From contig DAHVRJ010000136.1 in NCBI GenBank assembly GCA_027322505.1, positions 8,935-72,934 on the forward strand: a stretch of 64,000 bases of DNA. The letters are read 5' to 3'. The notes beneath the pieces were generated by a model. It was not told the DNA's origin. It did not search any database and saw only the letters and a program-made list of their open reading frames with translations. This stretch comes from Demequinaceae bacterium. GTDB lineage: Bacteria; Actinomycetota; Actinomycetes; Actinomycetales; JAJYRW01. The position numbers and the translations under genes were made by a program. Of this stretch, positions 4,842-23,220 are shown one piece after another. Numbering within the stretch: the stretch's first letter is position 1; each line of letters begins with the position of its first letter.

Positions 4842-5393
4842 GTGCGTCGAATATTTGCCATGCCATTTGTTCTAGCCAGCGCGATCGTTTTAGCTGCCTG
4901 CGCTGGCGAAAGTAACGAAAAAGCAGCAGATCCGCACCCGGAGTCAATTGCCACATCGGGCGCGCGGGCCGATGAGGACAATCTCGGCTTCCCGCTGCCT
5001 GAAGAAGAGGAAATGATTGTTGATGTGCGCCCCGATGCGTATCCGGCCGAACTAACGCTGGTGACCTGGGGTAGCTCGGCCTGCCCCACAGTTCCAACGA
5101 GTGTCTCGTGGGCCGGCTCCAGCACGATCGTGCTCGCAATTACTAGCGACTACGGGGATCAAGCCTGCACCGCAGATATGGTCCCTTGGGCCTCCATAGT
5201 TGAGTTGCCGCCGCGGAAAGAGGGTGGCGAAATTACTGAGGTGCGCGTCGAAGGTAAAGACGTAAATTTCCTGGTCAATGGCGCTGAAGTCAATGGCGAT
5301 GGTGATGAAAACGGCGCCGATGAAGACGGAGACCAAGGCGACGGCGATGGCGACAGTGATACCGACGACAACGGGGATGACAAAGACGATTAG
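4842..5393 (+). CDS. Hypothetical lipoprotein with poly-acidic C-terminal tail
   Basis: Signal peptide plus lipobox MRRIFAMPFVLASAIVLAAC. AAGGAG RBS upstream of the GTG start. The tail reads NGDGDENGADEDGDQGDGDGDSDTDDNGDDKDD. Confidence 0.7.
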   Translation: MRRIFAMPFVLASAIVLAACAGESNEKAADPHPESIATSGARADEDNLGFPLPEEEEMIVDVRPDAYPAELTLVTWGSSACPTVPTSVSWAGSSTIVLAITSDYGDQACTADMVPWASIVELPPRKEGGEITEVRVEGKDVNFLVNGAEVNGDGDENGADEDGDQGDGDGDSDTDDNGDDKDD

Positions 5394-5505
5394 GCGCCAA
5401 AATAGGGCCGATTCGTAAAGACGGCTAAGCCCGCCAGATTCGTAAAAGCGCCTAAGCGCGGCACCCAGAGCTCACTCCGCGATTTTCAACACGCCAACGG
5501 CAAAC

Positions 5506-5537
5506 TATTCACCCAGAGTATTCACCGGGTGTATAGT
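5506..5537 (+). promoter_or_regulatory. Candidate padR promoter: direct repeats TATTCACC x2 plus a -10 TATAGT giving a leaderless transcript
   Basis: TATTCACC at 5506-5513 and 5519-5526. TATAGT at 5532-5537, 7 nt before the ATG at 5545. No SD sequence is present. Confidence 0.4.
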
Positions 5538-5544
5538 CGCCGTC

Positions 5545-6075
5545 ATGTCACTTCGCCACACGCTCCTTGGGCTGCTCGAACCCGCCCCTGCCCACGGATA
5601 TTCCCTAAAAACTGCTTATGACTCCCATTTTGGCTCCGCTCGCGATGTCAAATACGGTCAGATTTACGCGACACTGGCGCGCCTGGAGCGCGACGGACTG
5701 GCCCACACCGTTGCCTTCGAATCGGGCGAAGGCCCCGACCGGCGCAACTATGCAATCACCGAATCTGGCATCACCGAACTCGAAGAGTGGCTTTACCAGG
5801 CCGAGCCCGTCCGGCCTGCCGCTCCCAGCGAACTGTTCGTCAAAGTAACGCTCGCGCTGGTATCTGGCCGCCCAGCAGCCGAAATCCTCGACGCCCAGCG
5901 CTCCGTTTATCTCACCCGCATGCGCGAACTTGCGCGCTTGCGCCGCAGCGCTGATTTACCCACGCAACTGGCAGCCGACTTCGAAACTGCCCACCTCAAA
6001 GCCGATCTGGAATGGATTGATGTGGCGGGCCAACGCCTGGACCGCTGGAAAACCGCACTGGAGAAAACGAAATGA
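5545..6075 (+). CDS. PadR family transcriptional regulator
   Basis: LLGLLEPAPAHGYSLKTAY...GQIYATLARLERDGL winged-helix pattern. Its stop overlaps the next start (ATGA at 6072). Confidence 0.9.
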   Translation: MSLRHTLLGLLEPAPAHGYSLKTAYDSHFGSARDVKYGQIYATLARLERDGLAHTVAFESGEGPDRRNYAITESGITELEEWLYQAEPVRPAAPSELFVKVTLALVSGRPAAEILDAQRSVYLTRMRELARLRRSADLPTQLAADFETAHLKADLEWIDVAGQRLDRWKTALEKTK

Positions 6076-12150: not shown

Positions 12151-12579
12151 ATGTCACCGAAAAAGCAGACCCGGCTTTCCGGTAATTTCGTGCGAGCAGT
12201 TGAACAAGAACTGGCAAATCCCGAGCGCGACGCTGTTGCCATCATGTCACTGAACCTGGGATGTCCCCACGATCTTTTTGCCCGCACACAGGCGCATCTG
12301 CTGCGCGAAACCGTCGCCTTATTACCAGCTTTTGCCCCGGCTTTTAAAACCATGGATATCCGCGCTGATCGGATATTTGCATTGACCGCTGGGACCGTGT
12401 CGGAACTGATGGATTTAGTAAACGACACCCACCACAGTCTCATCGTGCTGGAGGTGAAACATCCCGGTCTCGTTAAGTTCTGCATGAGCTTGGCTGTGGC
12501 AAAACCAGGAGATAGCGCGCAAGACCTACTCGAACGGGCACACGACATGCTCGATGCAGCAGTAATGGACTTCTCATGA
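12151..12579 (+). CDS. Hypothetical protein, probable degenerate GGDEF-like domain
   Basis: GGAG RBS, and ATGA overlap with the next gene. The pattern LSGNFVRA...AVAIMSLNLG...HLLRETVALL...DIRADRIFALTAG...FCMSLAVAKPGDSAQDLLERAHDMLDAA follows the GGDEF-fold order, but reads ADRIF where GGDEF is expected. Confidence 0.6.
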   Translation: MSPKKQTRLSGNFVRAVEQELANPERDAVAIMSLNLGCPHDLFARTQAHLLRETVALLPAFAPAFKTMDIRADRIFALTAGTVSELMDLVNDTHHSLIVLEVKHPGLVKFCMSLAVAKPGDSAQDLLERAHDMLDAAVMDFS

Positions 12580-12914
12580 CCGTGCCGGTACCCGGGGGGC
12601 TTGTGCAGGTTTTATGGGATGAAAAACGCACGTTGGTTGCGCTCAGTGGCGAAATCACCGCGGCCATCGCCGCGGAAATACAAGAGGCCGCGGGCATCGC
12701 GCGTTCGCGAAAACAACCCCTGGATATTGATGCACGGCACGTAACGCGTATTGACGCGCCCGGCTTCGCCGGATTAGCAAAACTAGCACTCCATAGATCC
12801 AGCGCCGTGCGTTTGCTGTATCCGTCCCCCGCAATTTGCTTTATTGTGTCTCTAACCGGGCTCGATGATCACGTGGAGATCGTAAGTACGCCGGACCTGA
12901 TTGGCGAGAATTAG
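12576..12914 (+). CDS. STAS domain protein (anti-sigma-factor antagonist-like)
   Basis: TLVALSGEITAAIAAEIQEA...LDIDARHVTRIDAPGFAGLAKL is a STAS pattern. Translationally coupled to its neighbours. Confidence 0.8.
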   Translation: MTVPVPGGLVQVLWDEKRTLVALSGEITAAIAAEIQEAAGIARSRKQPLDIDARHVTRIDAPGFAGLAKLALHRSSAVRLLYPSPAICFIVSLTGLDDHVEIVSTPDLIGEN

Positions 12915-12939
12915 TGCTTGAGAAAAGGAATGATTCCAA

Positions 12940-13647
12940 GTGCCCGACCATTCAAAAGTGTTTACGGCACTGTCGGATTTCATTCGAACGCTCCTGACGC
13001 CTTACGACATCGATCTAGCGCTCAATGATCTAGCGATTCGACTTTGTGAGCTTTTGGAAGTCGAAGGAGCCGGGGTTTCGTTAGCCAAGGATGATCACCT
13101 GCGGCTGGCCACCGCGCTGCCGCCCGACATCACTCCGCTGGAGGAAACGCAGTCTGCGCACCAATCTGGCCCCTGCGTTACAGCGTTTCGCAAGGGGCAA
13201 GCCGTCATGGTCAATGACCTACACGATTCCAAGTGCCGCCAAACCTGGCCGGAATACTGTAAAACGGCTGCGGAGATCGACTATCGCGCAGTAGCGGGCA
13301 TCCCCATGAAAATTGAAGACAATGCTTTTGGTGCTATCAATCTGTATTCCAAGCGCGCCCGCGAATGGGGCGAGCGCGAAATATTCTTAACGCAGACCTT
13401 CGCCGATGCCGCCACTGTCTACCTGCTGAATGCTTCCACCTTCGACCGCGAACGCGTGCTGAACAAGCACCTGCAACACGCGCTCGACTCTCGCGTCCTG
13501 GTGGAACAAGCCAAGGGCATCATTGCCGAAGCGCGCGGCATTACCGTCGATGAGGCCTTTGAACTTATTCGCCGCCAGGCGCGGTCACGCAACGCCTCGT
13601 TACGGTCAGTAGCCGAAGCGATAGTGACGCTGGGATTGCGGCTGTAG
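12940..13647 (+). CDS. GAF and ANTAR domain-containing RNA-binding regulator
   Basis: C-terminal ANTAR motif LDSRVLVEQAKGIIAEARGITVDEAFELIRRQARSRNASLRSVAEAIV. N-terminal GAF-like ...AVAGIPMKIEDNAFGAINLYS. AAGGAA RBS. Confidence 0.88.
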   Translation: MPDHSKVFTALSDFIRTLLTPYDIDLALNDLAIRLCELLEVEGAGVSLAKDDHLRLATALPPDITPLEETQSAHQSGPCVTAFRKGQAVMVNDLHDSKCRQTWPEYCKTAAEIDYRAVAGIPMKIEDNAFGAINLYSKRAREWGEREIFLTQTFADAATVYLLNASTFDRERVLNKHLQHALDSRVLVEQAKGIIAEARGITVDEAFELIRRQARSRNASLRSVAEAIVTLGLRL

Positions 13648-13662
13648 AGATGCCGTCCTTAA

Positions 13663-14283
13663 TTAACCTTTGGCGGTAAACCGCCGGGTCAGGGGCGTCG
13701 TTAGGGGGCTGAGCAGCAGATAGACCGCGACAGTAATACAGATTCCTAAAACCGCGCCGCCTAGCACGTCGTGCGGAAAATGGGCGCCGGTCGCGATGCG
13801 TAATGCTCCGATGGCCAGAGCAGCCAGATAAGCAAGGAGCGCCCAGCGATTCGTAGTAATAATCATGATGCCCGTTGCCACGGCAAAAGCAATCGTGGCG
13901 TGGTTGGAGGGAAAAGACCAGTCCCCCACCGCCGGACAATCATCCAAGATGAGAAGTTCGCGGCAGGGGCGTTCCTGGGTTAAAAAAATCTTGATCGCTT
14001 CGCTCAAAAGATAAGCCGTGATGATGCCGATTCCCGCCATTACTGCCACGATGATGCGCCGGGCCTCCAGTCGGCGAAAACCCCAGGCCACGAGCCCGAA
14101 GGCGGCTATCAGCCCCAGCATCAAGATCTCAGTCAGCCGGCTGGGAACGGGAATGTCGAGTTCGACAATTGACACGTACAGGTCGCCCGATACGCCCTTA
14201 AGAAGCAGCGCGCTGGGCACGAGAATCAGCGCGATGAGAAGCCATATGCCGGCTTTTTGGGCAGAGATGCGGGCTGCGGTCAT
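13663..14283 (-). CDS. PAP2 family lipid phosphate phosphatase
   Basis: The three PAP2 motifs: KIFLTQERP, PSNH and GAHFPHDV. Six TM segments. GGAGG RBS. Confidence 0.85.
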   Translation of the reverse strand: MTAARISAQKAGIWLLIALILVPSALLLKGVSGDLYVSIVELDIPVPSRLTEILMLGLIAAFGLVAWGFRRLEARRIIVAVMAGIGIITAYLLSEAIKIFLTQERPCRELLILDDCPAVGDWSFPSNHATIAFAVATGIMIITTNRWALLAYLAALAIGALRIATGAHFPHDVLGGAVLGICITVAVYLLLSPLTTPLTRRFTAKG

Positions 14284-14333
14284 TTCTGCCGCCTCCTAGA
14301 AACTGGATTGCAGGTTAAGCGATCTGGCCACTG

Positions 14334-15020
14334 TTAACTGTAAAAGAGTGCCATGCATGGCCCGATTACGATGATCCACGCCGCTGCCATGATGATGAGC
14401 ACACCAGTGGCGAAGGGTCGCAATTGCCGGAAAACCATGCCGATAGCCGCGGCTACGGGAACTGCCAAGGTAATGATCAGCGCGACATACCACTTTCCCA
14501 TCATCGCCGCCCAAAACATCAGCCCCACCACGATAGCGGCGAAGATCAGGCCCACTCCGGCCCCGATTCCGACTTTGGCGCCAAAAGACAGGTTCTGCTG
14601 TGGCGGCTGATAAGGACCGTAGGGGTTGGCACCCGGCGGAGCGTATGGGCCGGATGGATATTGCCCTGGGGGCGGCGCGCTCGGTGCGTACGGGCCGGGC
14701 TGCGCTCCAGGTGGATACGGGCCCGGCGAATGTGGCCCCGGCGGCGAGTGAGCACCAGGTGGATACGGGCCCGGCGGCGGCTGTTGATAAGAAGCCGGCG
14801 GCTGCTGCCACCCCGGCGGCGGAGCAGGCTGCTGATGCGGCGGCATTTGATGAGGCGGTTGCGGAGCACCCGGCGCCGGTTCAGGGCTGAGCGGCGGTTC
14901 CCCACCCGGCGCGCTCCAGGCCGTGGGTGGACGCCAGGCTGCAGACTCGCTCGGCGAATCATTTGGCGCGTCAGAGGATGAACCGCTCGGCGAATCGTTG
15001 TTCTCAGGCAGGTTGTTCAC
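14334..15020 (-). CDS. Proline-rich membrane protein
   Basis: About 140 aa of P/Q/G/Y-rich N-terminus (PPPGWQQPPASYQQPPPGPYPPGA...) followed by TM helices. GTG start with AAGGGGG RBS. Overlaps the upstream gene by 17 nt. Confidence 0.7.
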   Translation of the reverse strand: MNNLPENNDSPSGSSSDAPNDSPSESAAWRPPTAWSAPGGEPPLSPEPAPGAPQPPHQMPPHQQPAPPPGWQQPPASYQQPPPGPYPPGAHSPPGPHSPGPYPPGAQPGPYAPSAPPPGQYPSGPYAPPGANPYGPYQPPQQNLSFGAKVGIGAGVGLIFAAIVVGLMFWAAMMGKWYVALIITLAVPVAAAIGMVFRQLRPFATGVLIIMAAAWIIVIGPCMALFYS

Positions 15021-15822
15021 TGGGTGCCCCCTTTGGTGTTGCAGTCGTAGTTAATGCTGTAAATACGCCCCGGCGGGCCTTCCAAATAAGCCGCGCCATG
15101 AGCAGTGGGAACGTCACCATCAAAAACAGTTGGGGCCGGGTAAAACCAAGCCACGCGATGTTATTGCCGCGCACGAACTCGACTCCGAAACGAAACAGCG
15201 CGTAACCGGCAATAAAAAGGGTGAGGGTTTCACCAGCGGCAATGTCGCGGTGTCGAAGCCAAAACCACAGCAGGCCAAAGGCAATGGCATGAAAAATAAT
15301 CTCGTATACGAAGCTGGGGTGCAGGCCGGTATTTGCGGGCGATCCCACCCGCATGGCGGCAGCCGGATCCAACATAATTCCCCAGCCCCCGCCCGTTGGG
15401 GTGCCGGGGCGCTCGGTCAGTAGACAGCCGATCCGCCCGATCACCATCGCCAGTGCCACCGCCGGCGCAAATAAATCACCCGTCCGGTCTGGGTATCGCA
15501 CGATCATCTTGGCCACGTGCACGCCCAGCCAGGCGCCAAACAGCCCGCTCAAAATCGAGGCGTTGCCGGTCATCATCTGTTCGGCAAACGAGGCATTCTT
15601 CGACATATCTAGGTGCTGCAACCACGTGCCAAGACGGGCAAAAATTGCCGCTCCAAGAAGCGCTCCCAACACCACGTAGGCAATGCGATGGTCTTCCACG
15701 CCCCGCCGCCGCTTTTCAATGATGAAAATCAGCCCGCCGGCGCCAACCCCCAGCGCCACAAAAAATGCGTGCGTATCAATCGGCGGCGCCCACTCGATCA
15801 GGTCTTGCAGCGTGGGATACAT
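15004..15822 (-). CDS. Prolipoprotein diacylglyceryl transferase (Lgt) family protein, divergent
   Basis: Lgt-like HPSFVYEIIFHAIAFGLLWF and VIGRIGCLLTERPGTP. The canonical GNF.N.E signature is not conserved. GGAG RBS. Confidence 0.8.
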   Translation of the reverse strand: MYPTLQDLIEWAPPIDTHAFFVALGVGAGGLIFIIEKRRRGVEDHRIAYVVLGALLGAAIFARLGTWLQHLDMSKNASFAEQMMTGNASILSGLFGAWLGVHVAKMIVRYPDRTGDLFAPAVALAMVIGRIGCLLTERPGTPTGGGWGIMLDPAAAMRVGSPANTGLHPSFVYEIIFHAIAFGLLWFWLRHRDIAAGETLTLFIAGYALFRFGVEFVRGNNIAWLGFTRPQLFLMVTFPLLMARLIWKARRGVFTALTTTATPKGAPSEQPA

Positions 15823-15825
15823 GTG

Positions 15826-16149
15826 TTAGCTCCAAACTCCCATCCACAGCTTGACCCAAAACGGTATCGCCACCGCGGCCAAAACCGTAACAGTGATCAG
15901 GTATGCCAAAACAACGCGCGTATCGCCCAGTTTGCAGCGCGAGCGCATTAATCCACCGCGGCGGGCTTTTATGTAACCGCTGATTGCGATGAGACCAAAA
16001 GTAAGGACGGCAAGTGGTCCCGTTAGTGCGGCAATGATCGCAATCGTCGTAAATACGCACAGGCGCAGCGGGTCGAAGGGCGGGTGGGGGTCCGCAACCG
16101 TTTCGTCTCGCTGATTGAGCTGGGAGTAGTCGAATTCGGTGTTGTTCAT
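15826..16149 (-). CDS. Small membrane protein (about 107 aa, 3 predicted TM)
   Basis: I prefer the ATG at 16149 (MNNTEFDYSQL...), which forms an ATGA overlap with the radical SAM stop. The track ORF extends to 16245, inside the upstream gene. Confidence 0.55.
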   Translation of the reverse strand: MNNTEFDYSQLNQRDETVADPHPPFDPLRLCVFTTIAIIAALTGPLAVLTFGLIAISGYIKARRGGLMRSRCKLGDTRVVLAYLITVTVLAAVAIPFWVKLWMGVWS

Positions 16150-17756
16150 AGCGCTCGCAGGGATAGTTGGCGCTGCCCCGTTGCGGTAGAAATGCGGCTG
16201 TCGGAAAGTGGCTTCCACGCCTGCACCGCGCAAAAAGGCGCGCACTGATGGTTAGAGGTCTCTTCGTTGACGGTGGCCACGTGGACGCAGCACTGAATGA
16301 GTCGCTCTTCAATCATGGTGTTGATGTCCATGAAGGGCTTAATGGTGATGCGCAATACGCGCTCAGCCAGCATGCGGCGCATGCGCTGATGCTGTCCGGG
16401 AAGTTTGGATGCCGCCAATGTGGTCAGCGTTCCAATGCCCAGATCGCAGTTCACGCAAATATCGCGCCAGATATCAACCATGGTCGGGTGTGAGAGTGAT
16501 GACTGTTCGCTCAGCAGGTCCATTAGGGAACTTTTAACAACCTCGCGCACCTCCTTGTTGAAGTCGGAGTCCGCAATGCGGTTGGCGATAACGTCGGGGT
16601 TTATATCGAGGAACTCTTTGAGCCGGTCATGCCCGATGAGTGCCACCAGGGATTGCCACTGGTTGGAATCATCTTTTAGAAAATAGCCAACGGAGCAGCA
16701 GTGCGGGTGGCTGCACGGCAGCGCAGTGAGATCTTGCCACGTTATTTCGCCGTTCGTCTGCGGCCCCAACCGCGCAAGGACGCCCGTATGGGTAAGCCGA
16801 TCTTGCGGGTCAACTCCCGCGGAGCGTCCCGAGCCAAAAACTGGCTGAATGGTTACCCCACCTACATAGGGGGTTTCCTTGGCGCGGTTGATCACCGCAC
16901 CGATCTCATCGTCGTTCACGCCCAGCGCCGCGGTCATGGTCAAAGTCATAAACACGCCGGATTTGGCTAACCGGTCGATGGCTTGATCTTTGAACCTGCG
17001 AATGTCTCCGCCGCGGTGGTGACGTGAGGCTTCTTCCGACTCACCGTCGAATTGGAGGTAAATCTCAACACGTTCTCGATGCTTTTTAAGCACGCCCACA
17101 AATTCGTCGTCTTTCGCGATGCGCAAACCGTTCGTGTTGATCAAAATCCGCACGATCGGCCGGGCGACTAGGTGCTCCAGGAGTTGTTCCAGGTAGGGAT
17201 ACAACGTGGGCTCGCCACCCGAGAGCATCACGACGTCCAACCGGTCGTTTTCCTTCTCCAACCGCGCATCGATCGAATCAAGAACCTCTTGCAATGGCGC
17301 GACGTTCGCTAGCGCGGGGCTGGCAGAAGCAAAACAGGTCGGGCACTGCAAATTGCAGTGATCGGTGATGTCTTCTAAAAGAATGCATGTGTGCTGGGTT
17401 TGCATTTCCGGTAAGCCATCCTCATAGGCCTCCGGCACCGGCTTGAAGTTGCCTTGCACATCGGGAAGATGTTCCTTAGTGGGCGCCGTCCACTGCTCGA
17501 GATAGGTCAGAATTTCAGCGGACTCGTCATAAAGGGTGCGCACCAGACCGTGCTCACGGCACCCCCGCTCCAGCCACACCACACCGTCCCGATCTGCTAA
17601 CCAACCCGAAAGCCGTTGCACTTCTGCCAGCGGCTGGTCCGGATTTTCTTCGTGGCAGTGGGGGCAAAACGCGTTGACATATCGATGTAATCGGTAATTA
17701 CGCAGCGGCATACCCGCGCCGGCAGAAGCTGTCATGCAGGTCACCCTACCGACCAC
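16146..17756 (-). CDS. Radical SAM protein with N-terminal Cys/His ribbon and C-terminal Cys clusters
   Basis: Core CNLQCPTC followed by MLSGGEPTLYP. N-terminal FCPHCH...(31 aa)...GCREHG. C-terminal PCSHPHCC, CVNCD, QCCVH and CAPFC. Alternative starts are at 17735 and 17711. Confidence 0.88.
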   Translation of the reverse strand: MVGRVTCMTASAGAGMPLRNYRLHRYVNAFCPHCHEENPDQPLAEVQRLSGWLADRDGVVWLERGCREHGLVRTLYDESAEILTYLEQWTAPTKEHLPDVQGNFKPVPEAYEDGLPEMQTQHTCILLEDITDHCNLQCPTCFASASPALANVAPLQEVLDSIDARLEKENDRLDVVMLSGGEPTLYPYLEQLLEHLVARPIVRILINTNGLRIAKDDEFVGVLKKHRERVEIYLQFDGESEEASRHHRGGDIRRFKDQAIDRLAKSGVFMTLTMTAALGVNDDEIGAVINRAKETPYVGGVTIQPVFGSGRSAGVDPQDRLTHTGVLARLGPQTNGEITWQDLTALPCSHPHCCSVGYFLKDDSNQWQSLVALIGHDRLKEFLDINPDVIANRIADSDFNKEVREVVKSSLMDLLSEQSSLSHPTMVDIWRDICVNCDLGIGTLTTLAASKLPGQHQRMRRMLAERVLRITIKPFMDINTMIEERLIQCCVHVATVNEETSNHQCAPFCAVQAWKPLSDSRISTATGQRQLSLRAL

Positions 17757-17807
17757 GGCCGTTTTTTCTGCGAATGCACGCTCACCGCCCGTGCCAACGC
17801 GCCGCGA

Positions 17808-17857
17808 AATTACTTGCTCTACAACTGGGAAGTGGAATTACTTGCTCCGCAACTGGG
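17808..17857. promoter_or_regulatory. Two 22-bp direct repeats AATTACTTGCTCNNCAACTGGG (28-bp period) in a divergent promoter region
   Basis: 17808-17829 and 17836-17857 match at 20 of 22 positions. They lie between the radical SAM operon start and the CMD-family gene start. Confidence 0.45.
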
Positions 17858-17899
17858 TTGGCACTAATAGAGTCGCTTCTAAAGACGAGGAGTTTAAAT

Positions 17900-18364
17900 A
17901 TGCGCGAGGTTCGCCCCTACATCGACAAGACGCATCCCGAGATTTATAAAAGTCTTGTCCAGGCCGTTGCCCACAATCGCAAAGCTGCCAAGGCAGCCGA
18001 TATTTCTGTTGCGCTGTTGGAATTGGTCAACCTTCGAGTTTCCCAGTTAAATGCTTGCCCCACCTGCTTAAGCATTCACGCACCGGCTGCGCTGCGGGCC
18101 GGAGTGGAGCAGGAGAAGGTCGACGCCCTGCCGGCGTGGCGGGATACGACGATTTTCAATGAGGTCGAGCGGGCCGCTTTGAGTATTGCTGAATCGTTGA
18201 CGGTCATTGACCCGGCGCTAGATCGCAACGCTTTAGGCGCAGAGGTCGCACAAGTTCTGTCCACGGAACAAATCGCCGTTTTGGAATGGACCACGATCCT
18301 CATCAACGCGTTCAACCGGATTTCAGTCGCTAGCGGTCATCCAGTGCGCAAGAGTTCGAAGTAG
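17900..18364 (+). CDS. Carboxymuconolactone decarboxylase (AhpD-like) family protein
   Basis: LELVNLRVSQLNACPTCLSIH carries the CxxC motif of the AhpD/CMD fold. I prefer the ATG at 17900, which has a GAGGAG RBS at 17887-17892. The track ORF begins at 17774. Confidence 0.85.
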   Translation: MREVRPYIDKTHPEIYKSLVQAVAHNRKAAKAADISVALLELVNLRVSQLNACPTCLSIHAPAALRAGVEQEKVDALPAWRDTTIFNEVERAALSIAESLTVIDPALDRNALGAEVAQVLSTEQIAVLEWTTILINAFNRISVASGHPVRKSSK

Positions 18365-18411: not shown

Positions 18412-18488
18412 TGGTAGCGGGGGGAGGATTTGAACCTCCGTCCTCTGGGTTATGAGCCCAGCGAGCTACCGAGCTGCTCCACCCCGCG
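18412..18488 (-). tRNA. Initiator tRNA-Met (anticodon CAT)
   Basis: The reverse complement CGCGGGGTGGAGCAGCTCGGTAGCTCGCTGGGCTCATAACCCAGAGGACGGAGGTTCAAATCCTCCCCCCGCTACCA folds as a 77-nt cloverleaf. It has a C1-U72 mismatch, three G-C pairs closing the anticodon stem, and an encoded CCA. Confidence 0.93.
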
Positions 18489-20205: not shown

Positions 20206-23200
20206 CTACTCGGTCGCTCCTTCAATTTCTGCTTCGGCGCTGAACGCCTCTTCGAGCGCCTGCTGCAATTTATCCTGCGCGGCGCCATATGCAGCGAAGT
20301 CACCGGACTTCAGGGCCTCATCGGACTCCACCATCGCATCGCGAGCCTTGTCTAATGCGGTGGCAAGCCGTTCATGCGCATCGCCGACTGCCTCGGGAAT
20401 ATCCGGCTCCTCGGCGTCCGCATCTTCCGGTTCCTCTGTGCCTTCCGGAGCCTCGCCCTCATCGGGCTCCTCCCCTTCAGGCAGGTCTTCTTCTGGTATT
20501 TCGTCGCCTTCCGAAATTTCGCCGTTGCCGTCTGCCTCGACACCGGAGTCTCCTCCGAATATCTGGTCAAGAGCTTCATCGAGGGTGTCAGCGAATCCGA
20601 CGTTTTCACCGAAGGCTACGAGCACCTTCTGCAGCAGCGGGAACTTTGTTCCCTGGGAGCTTTGCACGTATACCGGCTGCACGTAAAGCAACCCGCCGCC
20701 AACGGGCAATGTAAGCAAATTACCCTTCAAAACCGAGGAGTTACCGCGGTTAAGCAAGTTCAAAGTCTCTGAGACGCGGGAATTGGCGTCAAAGTTGTTT
20801 TGCACCTGTCCTGGCCCGGGAACGGTGAGGTCACGCGGCAACTCGAGGAGTCGCAACTTGCCATAACCCTCCCGTGGTTTACCGGCCTCATTTCCCGCTT
20901 CCGCATCAGCCGCTAAGAAACCAGTGAGCACATTTCGCTCCCCACCGGTAATGAACGAAGAGGTAAGCGAGAATTCCGGGTTGTCTTGACCGGGCATCTG
21001 CAACGTCAAGTAGTACGGAGGCTGCAAGACCCGCGTGTTTTCGCCCTGTGTGGGTTCAGTGGGCTGGAGCCAGAAGTCCTGACCAGAATAAAACGCGTCC
21101 GCGTCCGAGACGTGGTACTGGGTCAGCAGCTGCCGTTGGATCTTGAACAGGTCTTCCGGATACCGAATGTGCGACATCAATTCTGAACTGATGTCATCGA
21201 TTGGATTCACCGAACCGGGGTAGACCGATTCCCAAGTCTTCAAAATTGGATCGTCCGGCTCCCACGCATACAGCGTTACTTCTCCGCTGTAGGCGTCGAC
21301 GGTTGCCTTAACCGAGTTCTTGACGTAGTTCGCTTTTTGCGGAGCGAGCGCTTGAATTGTCGAGGTCGATTCGGTGAGTGTGTCTCGGGTAGCAGTTTCC
21401 AAGCTCGTCGACTTTGAGTACGGGTAATCATCAGTTGTGGTGTAGCCGTCAACTATCCAGACCACCCGCTCATCGACCACCGCCGGATATACGCGGCCAT
21501 CCAGGGTCAACCACGGGGCAACCTTCTCGACCCGCTCGGATGGGTCGCGATCAAACAGAATCTGCGATTCGGAATTCACCCGGTCGGAGAACAGAATCTT
21601 TTCATCCCCAAACTTGATGGCGAAGAGAAGTTTGTTCCAAATATTGCCGATGCTGGGGCCACCATCGCCGGTGTAGGTGGTGTTCACCTGACCGGTAGGC
21701 GCTTCGTCATCCGGGTAGTCCAACTCCCAGGGCGTCGAGCCCTCAGGGGCGCCGACAATTGAGTAATCCGGAGACCTTTGACCAAAGTAGATTCGCGGCT
21801 CATAGTCGCCCAGTTCACCGGTAGAGGGAATGCCCCGCTGATAAAACGAGGGGCGTCCATCCCCCTGCGTGGTATTACCGAACGCAGCCACAACGCCATA
21901 ACCGTGGGTGTAGACGGTGCGCTCATTAACCCACGTGCGTTCACTGGCTTCTAGACCATTGAGGTCCAGTTCGCGCACCGCAATAACGGTGTCGCGCTTT
22001 TCGTCCCCGACGGTGTAGCGGTCAACTGCCAGCGTGTCCGGGAAGTTGTAGTACTGCTTGTTTTGCTGTAACTGCCGGAAGGAGGGGCTGACAATTGTGG
22101 GGTCGAGGAGTCGAATTGAAGCGGTTGCCTCCGCGTCTTGGCGCAGCGCGCCCTCTTCGGCGTCAGTTTTCGCCTCATAGCGCGTTACTTCAACATCCTC
22201 CATGCCGTACGCGAAGAGGGTGGCGTCAATATTGCGCTGAATAAATGGTTTTTCCAGCTGCTGGGCGTTGGGCTCGACCTGGAATCGCTGAATGAGTGCT
22301 GGATAGGCCGCTCCAACCACTAGCCCAGACAAAACCATGAGCCCCACACCCAGGGCTGGCAGCTTCCAGTCGCTGCGGAAAGCTGCCGCGATAAACAGCA
22401 GTGCCACGAATACGGAAATACCCGCCAGGATGCCCTTGGCCGGTAGTACGGCATGAATATCGCTGTAGGTAGCGCCATCAAACTTTCCGCCGCCCTTGGA
22501 CAACAAACTGTAGCGGTCTAGCCAGTAGTTGACACCGATCAGCAGCGTGAATACGGCCGCGAGAATCGCTAAATGCAGGCGAGCGGTGCGGGTTAGCGGC
22601 TCACCGCCGCCCCCAATGCGGATGCCACCGTAGAGGTAGTGCGTGGCGGCCCCAGCAATCACCGCGATTGCAACAACCGCCATCAAAAAGCCAGTGACGT
22701 ATTTCCACCAGGGCAGCGAAAATACGAAGAATGAAATGTCCATGCCAAATTGGGGGTCCGTCTGGTTAAACGGCTCGGCTTTAATCCACAGAAGCACCGT
22801 CTCCCACTGGCTCGCCAGCGAAGCGCCCGCAAATAACCCAATCAGAATCGGCGCACCGATCATGATGATTTTGCGTAGCGGCTCCAGCGAGGCGCGATAA
22901 CGATCTAAAACGACTTGTTGCGGCGTTGAGGGAGCATAAATTGGACGGTGGCGCCAGGCAATATAGATGGAGGCCCACACTCCCGCACCCATCACCGCGC
23001 CCCCAATTATGAATAGGAGCGCTTTGACGATCCAGCGGGTGCGCAGCACCTGCAAGAACCCAAGTTGATCAAACCACAGCCATTCAGTCCAAAACTGGGC
23101 CAAGATTACGATGGCCACGGCAATTACTGCCAATACCACCAAAGTGGGAACCAGTGCCCCCCGGCGCTGGTTCTTTTTCGGTCCGCGTCCCACCGGTTGG

Positions 23201-23220
23201 GACGGGCTCTGTTGTGTCAC
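20206..23220 (-). CDS. UPF0182 family membrane protein
   Basis: 1004 aa. N-terminal TM bundle FWTEWLWFDQLGFLQVLRTRW and a large extracytoplasmic domain. Acidic C-terminal tail. Sits next to a PPA1309-family gene, as in other actinobacteria. Confidence 0.9.
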   Translation of the reverse strand: MTQQSPSQPVGRGPKKNQRRGALVPTLVVLAVIAVAIVILAQFWTEWLWFDQLGFLQVLRTRWIVKALLFIIGGAVMGAGVWASIYIAWRHRPIYAPSTPQQVVLDRYRASLEPLRKIIMIGAPILIGLFAGASLASQWETVLLWIKAEPFNQTDPQFGMDISFFVFSLPWWKYVTGFLMAVVAIAVIAGAATHYLYGGIRIGGGGEPLTRTARLHLAILAAVFTLLIGVNYWLDRYSLLSKGGGKFDGATYSDIHAVLPAKGILAGISVFVALLFIAAAFRSDWKLPALGVGLMVLSGLVVGAAYPALIQRFQVEPNAQQLEKPFIQRNIDATLFAYGMEDVEVTRYEAKTDAEEGALRQDAEATASIRLLDPTIVSPSFRQLQQNKQYYNFPDTLAVDRYTVGDEKRDTVIAVRELDLNGLEASERTWVNERTVYTHGYGVVAAFGNTTQGDGRPSFYQRGIPSTGELGDYEPRIYFGQRSPDYSIVGAPEGSTPWELDYPDDEAPTGQVNTTYTGDGGPSIGNIWNKLLFAIKFGDEKILFSDRVNSESQILFDRDPSERVEKVAPWLTLDGRVYPAVVDERVVWIVDGYTTTDDYPYSKSTSLETATRDTLTESTSTIQALAPQKANYVKNSVKATVDAYSGEVTLYAWEPDDPILKTWESVYPGSVNPIDDISSELMSHIRYPEDLFKIQRQLLTQYHVSDADAFYSGQDFWLQPTEPTQGENTRVLQPPYYLTLQMPGQDNPEFSLTSSFITGGERNVLTGFLAADAEAGNEAGKPREGYGKLRLLELPRDLTVPGPGQVQNNFDANSRVSETLNLLNRGNSSVLKGNLLTLPVGGGLLYVQPVYVQSSQGTKFPLLQKVLVAFGENVGFADTLDEALDQIFGGDSGVEADGNGEISEGDEIPEEDLPEGEEPDEGEAPEGTEEPEDADAEEPDIPEAVGDAHERLATALDKARDAMVESDEALKSGDFAAYGAAQDKLQQALEEAFSAEAEIEGATE

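Follow-up and report, generated by a model that had tools for sequence, protein, structure and literature searches.

Lgt moves a diacylglyceryl group from phosphatidylglycerol onto a cysteine thiol. Tes, also called GDGT-MAS (MJ0619; structures 7TOL and 7TOM), is the archaeal tetraether synthase, an enzyme of the radical S-adenosylmethionine (SAM) type. Crystals of Tes contained archaetidylglycerol or phosphatidic acid, and the enzyme forms a lipid C-S(cluster) intermediate. The head groups of the phosphoglycerolipids that it binds face outward, a terminal hydrogen is abstracted and the radical is parked on a sulfide of the C-terminal cluster, after which the C-C bond is made; Met439 and Tyr459 are strictly conserved in 1000 archaeal Tes homologues. 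Here we describe a locus in which relatives of both enzymes are encoded side by side. It lies in a 64,000-nucleotide (nt) stretch of DNA from a Demequinaceae bacterium (contig DAHVRJ010000136.1; this whole stretch is called the window below) and consists of four genes, for a radical SAM enzyme, a small membrane protein with two invariant cysteines (the two-Cys protein), a paralogue of Lgt and a second small membrane protein, small2. These four genes form a conserved cassette that recurs in many bacteria. Full-text literature searches on radical SAM enzymes combined with Lgt, on Tes homologues of Actinomycetota and on paralogues of Lgt turned up no account of it, and the sequence-only reading of the window, which had preceded this work, had been unable to match the genes to any described actinobacterial system. 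The architecture is undescribed and widely conserved, and the kinds of its components, a Tes-type lipid radical SAM enzyme and an Lgt-type transferase, are known.

Conservation of the cassette was assessed in a genome scan with one genome per species, which gave at least 597 loci with close relatives of the radical SAM gene; the best 80 of them were compared. They belong to Microbacterium, Agromyces, Leucobacter, Arthrobacter, Knoellia, Janibacter, Phycicoccus, Ornithinimicrobium and Nocardioides. The genes of the two-Cys protein and of the Lgt-like protein stand beside the radical SAM gene, all on one strand, in every one of the 79 loci with room for them, and 78 of 82 loci encode the C-terminal domain of small2 on the same strand in the cassette. 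Two gene orders are seen: Microbacteriaceae and Micrococcaceae have radical SAM, small, Lgt, and Intrasporangiaceae and Nocardioidaceae have Lgt, radical SAM, small. Spacing is tight: in 45 of about 80 loci the stop codon of the radical SAM gene and the start of the two-Cys gene overlap by 4 nt, and the remaining junctions mostly measure 1-4 nt or -4 nt. No additional gene family recurred in more than about 22 loci when the open reading frames (ORFs) of the 80 loci were grouped by single-linkage clustering, a count that is confounded by over-long ORFs in high-GC DNA.

In the window a fifth gene follows on the same strand, encoding a PAP2-family phosphatase, and the sequence-only reading had taken all five for one operon, which looked to it like a pathway for tailoring membrane lipids or lipoprotein anchors. 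The ORF list of the window confirmed five co-directional minus-strand ORFs with near-zero spacing, and all four junctions proved exact. The radical SAM gene (16146-17756) ends with TGA at 16146-16148 and the gene of the two-Cys protein (107 amino acids, aa; 15826-16149) begins with ATG at 16147-16149, so that the two have ATGA in common at 16146-16149. The stop codon of the latter gene ends at 15826, and the ATG of the Lgt paralogue (272 aa; 15004-15822) lies at 15822, leaving a gap of 3 nt (15823-15825). The stop of the Lgt-family gene ends at 15004 and thus overlaps by 17 nt the gene of the proline-rich small2 (228 aa; 14334-15020), which starts with GTG at 15020, preceded 7 nt upstream by the Shine-Dalgarno sequence AAGGGGG; an overlap of 17-20 nt at this junction recurs in the homologous loci L082, L084 and L171. 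Finally, the small2 stop ends at 14334 and the PAP2 gene (206 aa; 13663-14283) opens with ATG at 14283, a gap of 50 nt that contains an AGGAGG ribosome-binding site. Pfam domains were found in three of the products (Radical_SAM with Zn_ribbon_HMPTM, LGT and PAP2), while neither small protein matched any Pfam or NCBIfam family.

The proposal of a five-gene operon held for the tight unit of four genes and failed for the fifth. The PAP2 gene is absent from all 80 related loci and also from the nearest, 81%-identical relatives, which have the four genes; it adjoins the cassette solely on contigs of the same 90%-identity lineage. We therefore rejected PAP2 as a component and regard the four-gene cassette as the unit, with PAP2 as a lineage-specific local neighbour, although in the window it is probably co-transcribed with the cassette. 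Its Pfam match is clear (E 3.2e-21), and it shows weak, sub-cutoff similarity to undecaprenyl-diphosphatases. The other genes that flank the cassette in the window (deacetylase, TrpB-like, STAS, ANTAR, CMD, Na/Ca exchanger and UPF0182) are likewise not conserved beside it in any of the 80 loci. The neighbourhood check that the sequence-only reading had asked for thus came out in favour of the Lgt-family gene, which is co-localised with the radical SAM gene across Actinomycetota and beyond, and not of PAP2.

The sites at which the cassette is found vary. It directly follows cdsA, the gene for CDP-diacylglycerol synthase, in Nocardioides; in Nocardioides daedukensis (locus L083, 6336-10771) it is inserted immediately behind cdsA in the conserved rpsB-tsf-pyrH-frr-cdsA block and is succeeded by a His_Phos_1 gene. 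Altogether there are 6 loci in which cdsA and the cassette are no more than about 2 kb apart. The cassette sits between an mshC-like gene and PAC2 in Phycicoccus, and after a MarR gene in Leucobacter. A 66%-identical copy is carried by pS2b, a mobilizable 344-kb plasmid of a sputum isolate of Mycobacterium avium subsp. hominissuis (L174, 4225-7545). This copy comprises an LGT-family gene with the GRxGC signature, two mini-proteins with a G-x-C motif and the radical SAM gene, and it is flanked by toxin genes of the RES-Xre and AbiEii toxin-antitoxin types and by an IS110 transposase. The variable genomic sites, the plasmid copy and the 72-82% identity of the radical SAM protein across orders together indicate that the cassette is horizontally mobile. 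In the window, the CMD/AhpD-like and Na/Ca-exchanger genes enclose a tRNA-Met (CAT) gene (18412-18488, minus strand), which is some 650 nt upstream of the cassette; since the cassette is mobile elsewhere, this tRNA gene could mark an integration site.

The radical SAM enzyme is related to Tes. Its longest ORF gives 536 aa from GTG 17756, but homologues make a start at ATG 17735 or ATG 17711 more likely, the former because the 98%-identical homologue P0001 has 529 aa and the latter because invariance in the family starts at M16. Pfam finds Radical_SAM (7.4e-20) and Zn_ribbon_HMPTM (2.2e-10). The best-scoring named NCBIfam family is TrsS (NF045646), matched over model positions 12-429 of 441 with 205.6 bits against a cutoff of 490; the Tes family (NF045702) gives 164.6 bits against 450. 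A phmmer search aligned residues 46-510 with 7TOL (E 2.5e-36), the sole solved structure matched by sequence, and Foldseek ranked 7TOL and 7TOM first (E 1e-19), fourteen orders of magnitude above the next radical SAM enzyme. The low-confidence AlphaFold 2 (AF2) model used for this last search was built from a 14-sequence alignment and served for the top-fold match, not for pocket or cluster geometry. These scores place the protein in the Tes/TrsS superfamily and, as far as family cutoffs can tell, in neither family: it shares Zn_ribbon_HMPTM and superfamily membership with TrsS but scores well under the TrsS cutoff and has no evident selenocysteine. The sequence-only reading had linked the enzyme to lipid C-C-bond synthases by analogy, and sequence and fold now turn this analogy into superfamily membership; at the same time, the enzyme falls in no characterised non-lipid family.

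Identity to Tes amounts to about 22-28%. The rubredoxin-like site C31-x2-C34...C66-x2-H69 and the radical SAM motif C134-x3-C138-x2-C141 (17334-17357) do not vary among 14 orthologues, and in the alignment they fall on the corresponding residues of Tes. Further cysteines invariant in these orthologues are C348, C353, C354, C434, C437, C489, C490, C505 and C509, of which CC489/490 and C509 align with the C-terminal CC...C cysteines of Tes, and a helical C-terminal domain is found where Tes forms its second lipid pocket. On the other hand, the ligands of the N-terminal auxiliary [4Fe-4S] cluster of Tes (C73, C77, C80 and a His; motif GCPxDCGxCPxH) are missing: the aligned segment, YEDGLPEMQTQHT, contains no cysteine, and the ligand positions are taken by A/E, D113, P116 and Q119. 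Tes Met439 is replaced by an invariant Lys473 (KPFMD) and Tes Tyr459 by an invariant Val493 (CCVHVAT), whereas C348, C353, C434 and C437 are extra with respect to Tes; these additional invariant cysteines suggest a cluster complement that differs from that of Tes. The settings differ as well, with bacterial, aerobic hosts and obligate Lgt-like and small-protein partners here, and no such partners described for Tes. Because the N-terminal GCPxDCGxC motif is present in all 80 of the more distant metagenomic Tes/TrsS-like relatives, its loss marks the clade of the present enzyme. In a library of representatives at 50% identity this clade is small and discrete, with full-length members at 58%, 45% and 41% identity, followed by the mass of Tes/TrsS-like proteins at 30-38%. 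The copy on the M. avium plasmid belongs to the clade without the N-terminal cluster.

The Lgt paralogue is related to E. coli Lgt in a similar, partial manner. It matches Pfam LGT (PF01790) with E 3.3e-25 and 89.2 bits against a gathering threshold of 24.9, yet it misses all NCBIfam Lgt cutoffs (TIGR00544, 46.8 against 118.9 bits; NF000778, the best, 57.7 against 334). Its AF2 model, with a predicted local distance difference test score (pLDDT) of 71, has the seven-helix Lgt fold, and the sole significant match in the PDB is 5AZB, E. coli Lgt (template-modelling score 0.53, probability 1.00). We then aligned 77 family members with E. coli Lgt, whose numbering is used here. H24, G98, D129, R143, H196, Y235, R239, E243 and R246, nine residues in all, are conserved. 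In E. coli Lgt, Y26, H103, R143, N146, E151, G154, Y235, R239 and E243 are reported to be essential or important. Three of these are changed in the paralogue: Asn146 has become an invariant Cys133 (15424-15426, in GRIGC; the family signature is GRxGC), His103 is Leu, and Tyr26 has been lost. Around E151/G154 the sequence is rearranged and cannot be aligned, and the extracytoplasmic head has about 15 aa fewer. From the kept Arg, Glu and Tyr residues, set against the altered N146, H103 and Y26 and the shorter head, it therefore appears that the phosphate-binding and catalytic Arg/Glu core has been retained and the acceptor side remodelled. A positive-inside analysis predicts the Lgt signature motif on the outer face, as in Lgt itself. 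The identification of an Lgt-family transferase in the sequence-only reading was thus right as to fold and family, but this is no ordinary Lgt, and in addition its gene is in every case the partner of a Tes-like radical SAM gene. Public records name it "prolipoprotein diacylglyceryl transferase (family protein)" and its partner "radical SAM protein"; the former annotation, understood as ordinary Lgt, is probably wrong. No second lgt gene is present within the 64-kb window.

Both small proteins carry invariant cysteines. Hydropathy and charge give the two-Cys protein an acidic N-terminal tail and two hydrophobic segments. An invariant DPLRLC31 (C31 at 16057-16059) stands at the start of the first segment, within which a G-P is also invariant, and a strongly basic loop, GY.ARR.GL.RS.C72.LGDTR (C72 at 15934-15936), precedes the second. 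Homologues with both cysteines follow the radical SAM genes of 45% and 41% identity, with a 4-nt overlap in the former case. In small2, a variable proline-rich N-terminal tail of about 149 aa is joined to a C-terminal domain of about 80-85 aa with three hydrophobic segments. Cys222 (14355-14357), in its invariant G-x-C motif, is six residues short of the C-terminus and is predicted at the outer end of the last helix, before which comes the basic loop RQLRP. Across the loci this cysteine is always 5-18 residues from the end, and the positive-inside analysis puts it outside, at the end of a helix that follows a basic loop. Lipoprotein signal peptides and their lipobox have this geometry. The N-termini of the G-x-C proteins may be proline-rich, zinc-ribbon or absent, tandem duplication is frequent, and the cysteine-bearing helix alone is invariant; because of these three features, the proteins seem to behave as substrates rather than enzymes.

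The association extends to more distant relatives of the radical SAM enzyme. Partners of the 41%-identical relative are an LGT-family protein (GRIGC), a two-Cys small protein and a zinc-ribbon membrane protein with ...IGC... at its end; we suspect that the contig of this relative is non-actinobacterial, since a neighbouring gene carries an SBP_bac_10 domain. In locus L087 an unannotated ORF (5371-5700) between the LGT gene and a gene for a 111-aa protein duplicates the zinc-ribbon and membrane-helix protein. The 37%- and 33%-identical relatives also adjoin a GRxGC LGT gene and genes for membrane proteins ending in a G-x-C motif. At the 33%-identical locus (L090, 829-5408), the radical SAM and LGT genes precede one gene for an ArsP_1-type permease and one for a YedE/YeeE-type sulfur/selenium transporter fused to an isoprenylcysteine carboxyl-methyltransferase-like (ICMT-like) domain, a context that hints at C-terminal cysteine processing or at sulfur/selenium chemistry.

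With a profile made from the distant relatives we retrieved a further 80 loci, from metagenomes. An LGT-family gene lies within 5 kb in 36 of them, and in 24 it is adjacent, on the same strand and of the GRxGC type; G-x-C mini-proteins, often in tandem, flank at least 10. The metagenomic loci without an LGT gene have a different N-terminal signature and are probably a branch closer to Tes proper. A GRxGC Lgt and G-x-C mini-proteins are found together on a plasmid of Chondrinema (Bacteroidota) too, and the distant Lgt-like proteins carry an added GGCCYG motif. In two metagenomic loci with distant Tes-like radical SAM genes (L091 and L092), an LGT-family gene with the canonical motif GRLGN is located 500-750 nt upstream; because these genes keep the asparagine, the pairing of radical SAM and Lgt may be older than the Asn-to-Cys change. 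Judged from these comparisons, the universal core is the radical SAM enzyme, the GRxGC Lgt paralogue and a G-x-C protein, and the association is much older than the actinobacterial clade; the two-Cys protein was added in the clade without the N-terminal cluster.

What might such a cassette do? The reading that we favour, tentatively and at a probability of about 0.42, is that it encodes a membrane module that modifies a glycerolipid-derived thioether on dedicated small membrane proteins, that is, a thiol-directed lipidation. The substrates, the acceptor, the order of steps and the product we infer as follows. The Lgt paralogue would bind a phosphoglycerolipid at the outer leaflet through Arg143, Arg239, Glu243 and Tyr235 and pass its diacylglyceryl group, or a related lipid, to a thiol. 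The most likely acceptor would be the invariant cysteine of a G-x-C protein, because its position at the outer end of a helix after a basic loop is that of a lipoprotein signal peptide and lipobox. The Tes-like enzyme, presumably docked at the cytoplasmic face by the translationally coupled two-Cys protein, would then abstract a hydrogen from an unactivated carbon of the hydrocarbon tail and form a C-C or C-S bond with the aid of its C-terminal Fe-S cluster or clusters. An elaboration of this idea, which we hold to be distinctly unlikely, is that the radical SAM enzyme joins the tail of an S-lipidated G-x-C helix to a second lipid or to a cysteine, which would give a membrane-spanning lipid-protein anchor or a short lipopeptide.

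Several observations weigh against the lipidation reading. The loss of Tyr26, His103 and Asn146 means that transferase activity of the Lgt paralogue is not assured. The radical SAM enzyme is cytoplasmic and the Lgt-type site extracytoplasmic, so that the two would act on opposite faces of the membrane. The context of the G-x-C cysteine, [LVIF]-x-G-[PASV]-C, is not that of a canonical lipobox, and Pro at -1 is common. The two-Cys protein is absent from the M. avium plasmid copy and from the more distant versions of the cassette, hence an anchoring role for it is not general. The hosts are mostly aerobes, whereas the Tes and Mss enzymes characterised so far work anaerobically. Finally, the topology of the small proteins comes from hydropathy and charge only, and the AF2 model of the radical SAM enzyme is poor (pLDDT 53).

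One plausible alternative is that the product is a free membrane lipid. Here, two acyl tails would be coupled as by Tes or Mss to give a diacid lipid, either macrocyclic or membrane-spanning; the Lgt paralogue would then remodel the head group or backbone, and the small proteins would be no more than scaffolds. The radical SAM enzyme is homologous to Tes along its full length, and cdsA adjoins the cassette in Nocardioides. The hosts are rich in iso and anteiso branched fatty acids, whose termini resemble phytanyl ends; however, we know of no membrane-spanning lipids from these aerobic genera. Moreover, the features that define Tes, namely the cysteines of the N-terminal cluster, Met439 and Tyr459, are missing, and the score is far under the Tes cutoff. 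Scaffolds also fail to explain why cysteines are invariant in three membrane partners and why the G-x-C proteins are duplicated and variable. Bacterial Tes homologues have been proposed as synthases of glycerol dialkyl glycerol tetraethers of the branched type (brGDGTs) or of iso-diabolic acid, which speaks for this explanation, but recent papers report a confirmed function for none of them. As for Mss, the bacterial membrane-spanning lipid synthase, it is likewise a radical SAM enzyme proposed for tail-to-tail C-C bonds, yet it offers a functional analogy only: it belongs to another radical SAM lineage, remotely related to Tes, comes from anaerobes and has no reported Lgt partner. On balance we consider a free lipid product a serious but rather unlikely explanation.

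The substrate-like character of the small proteins could also be taken to mean that proteins alone are modified, as in ribosomally synthesised peptides with post-translational modifications (RiPPs). The radical SAM enzyme would then cross-link cysteines of the small proteins, by thioether or other bonds, and the Lgt-fold protein would be a non-catalytic membrane chaperone. Invariant cysteines in an otherwise variable and often duplicated partner are indeed what precursor peptides offer, and sactipeptide and ranthipeptide maturases, which link a cysteine sulfur to carbon with the help of an auxiliary cluster, are a mechanistic analogy. Similarity of the cassette enzyme to sactipeptide/SPASM maturases is nonetheless weak and confined to the radical SAM core (residues about 125-290), with no match to SPASM, twitch or RRE domains, while the alignment to Tes covers the entire protein, with the C-terminal lipid-pocket domain. 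The small neighbours are membrane proteins and not typical precursors, the G-x-C cysteine is predicted outside, away from the cytoplasmic radical SAM enzyme, and the Lgt paralogue strongly conserves the Arg/Glu/Tyr set for phospholipid binding and catalysis. This makes a purely peptide-directed system improbable.

To a like extent we doubt that the cassette encodes a thiol-, Fe-S- or metal-handling complex, in which the cysteines would be ligands or relay sites of a redox relay or of a sulfur, selenium or arsenic lipid pathway. Such a function would account for the invariant cysteines in every partner and for the GGCCYG motif of the distant Lgt-like proteins, and it would agree with the (seleno)protein TrsS being the nearest named NCBIfam family. 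The TrsS score is under the cutoff, though, and the ArsP-type permease with the YedE/YeeE-ICMT fusion occurs in one distant locus only and was not found in the actinobacterial loci. That a housekeeping Lgt and a pterin methyltransferase are neighbours by mere incident, as the public "prolipoprotein diacylglyceryl transferase" label and the "7,8-dihydro-6-hydroxymethylpterin dimethyltransferase" label of some homologues would have it, is hardly credible, given adjacency in 79 of 79 loci that persists down to 33% radical SAM identity, an Lgt-like protein that is under all equivalog cutoffs with N146C, H103L and no Y26, and a cassette found on plasmids and at variable genomic sites. The pterin dimethyltransferase function itself was rejected as a superseded annotation: the pterin assignment of MJ0619 was not reproducible, and the protein was shown to be Tes.

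Some further features of the window should be mentioned. The radical SAM gene and the CMD/AhpD-like gene, which probably starts at 17900, diverge from an intergenic region at 17757-17899 that is presumed to contain the promoter of the cassette; no sigma-70 consensus and no Rfam family was found there. A promoter and terminator scan of 13300-18100 found no promoter and placed terminator-like hairpins solely within coding sequence, and is thus uninformative on transcript boundaries. An Rfam scan of the window returned nothing but one tRNA. Among the PADLOC defence models, the radical SAM protein showed only a generic core similarity to prokaryotic viperins, and the other four proteins had no match. 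Beyond the PAP2 gene, a plus-strand group at 12151-13647 begins with a 142-aa ORF of no assigned family, which shares 4 nt with a STAS-domain gene; a GAF-ANTAR regulator gene comes next, and its stop lies 15 nt from the PAP2 stop, in convergent orientation. Microbacterium sp. dk485 (L082) also has two GAF-ANTAR genes, at a distance of 6-8 kb from its cassette. A polysaccharide deacetylase (PF01522; 9336-10367, plus strand) has three tandem (P/A)GRDFAS repeats in an N-terminal linker, after a lipoprotein-like signal sequence (...LFTAC). The UPF0182-family membrane protein (20206-23220, minus strand; 1004 aa) ends in a long, strongly acidic tail rich in Glu and Asp.

Bacterial Tes homologues are in use as genomic markers for producers of brGDGTs, which serve as palaeoclimate proxies. 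A large part of the radiation of these homologues, including an aerobic Actinomycetota clade of at least 597 loci, is tied to an altered Lgt and to cysteine-bearing mini-proteins. This pairing points to a chemistry other than, or additional to, the coupling of lipid tails, and so affects how matches to "Tes homologues" are to be read. If the cassette is indeed a lipidation pathway, many bacterial proteins that are counted as candidate brGDGT synthases would have a different role. The four genes make a concrete candidate for a lipid or lipoprotein modification of a new kind; culturable strains of Microbacterium, Nocardioides and Knoellia carry them, as does a mobilizable plasmid from a clinical isolate of M. 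avium.

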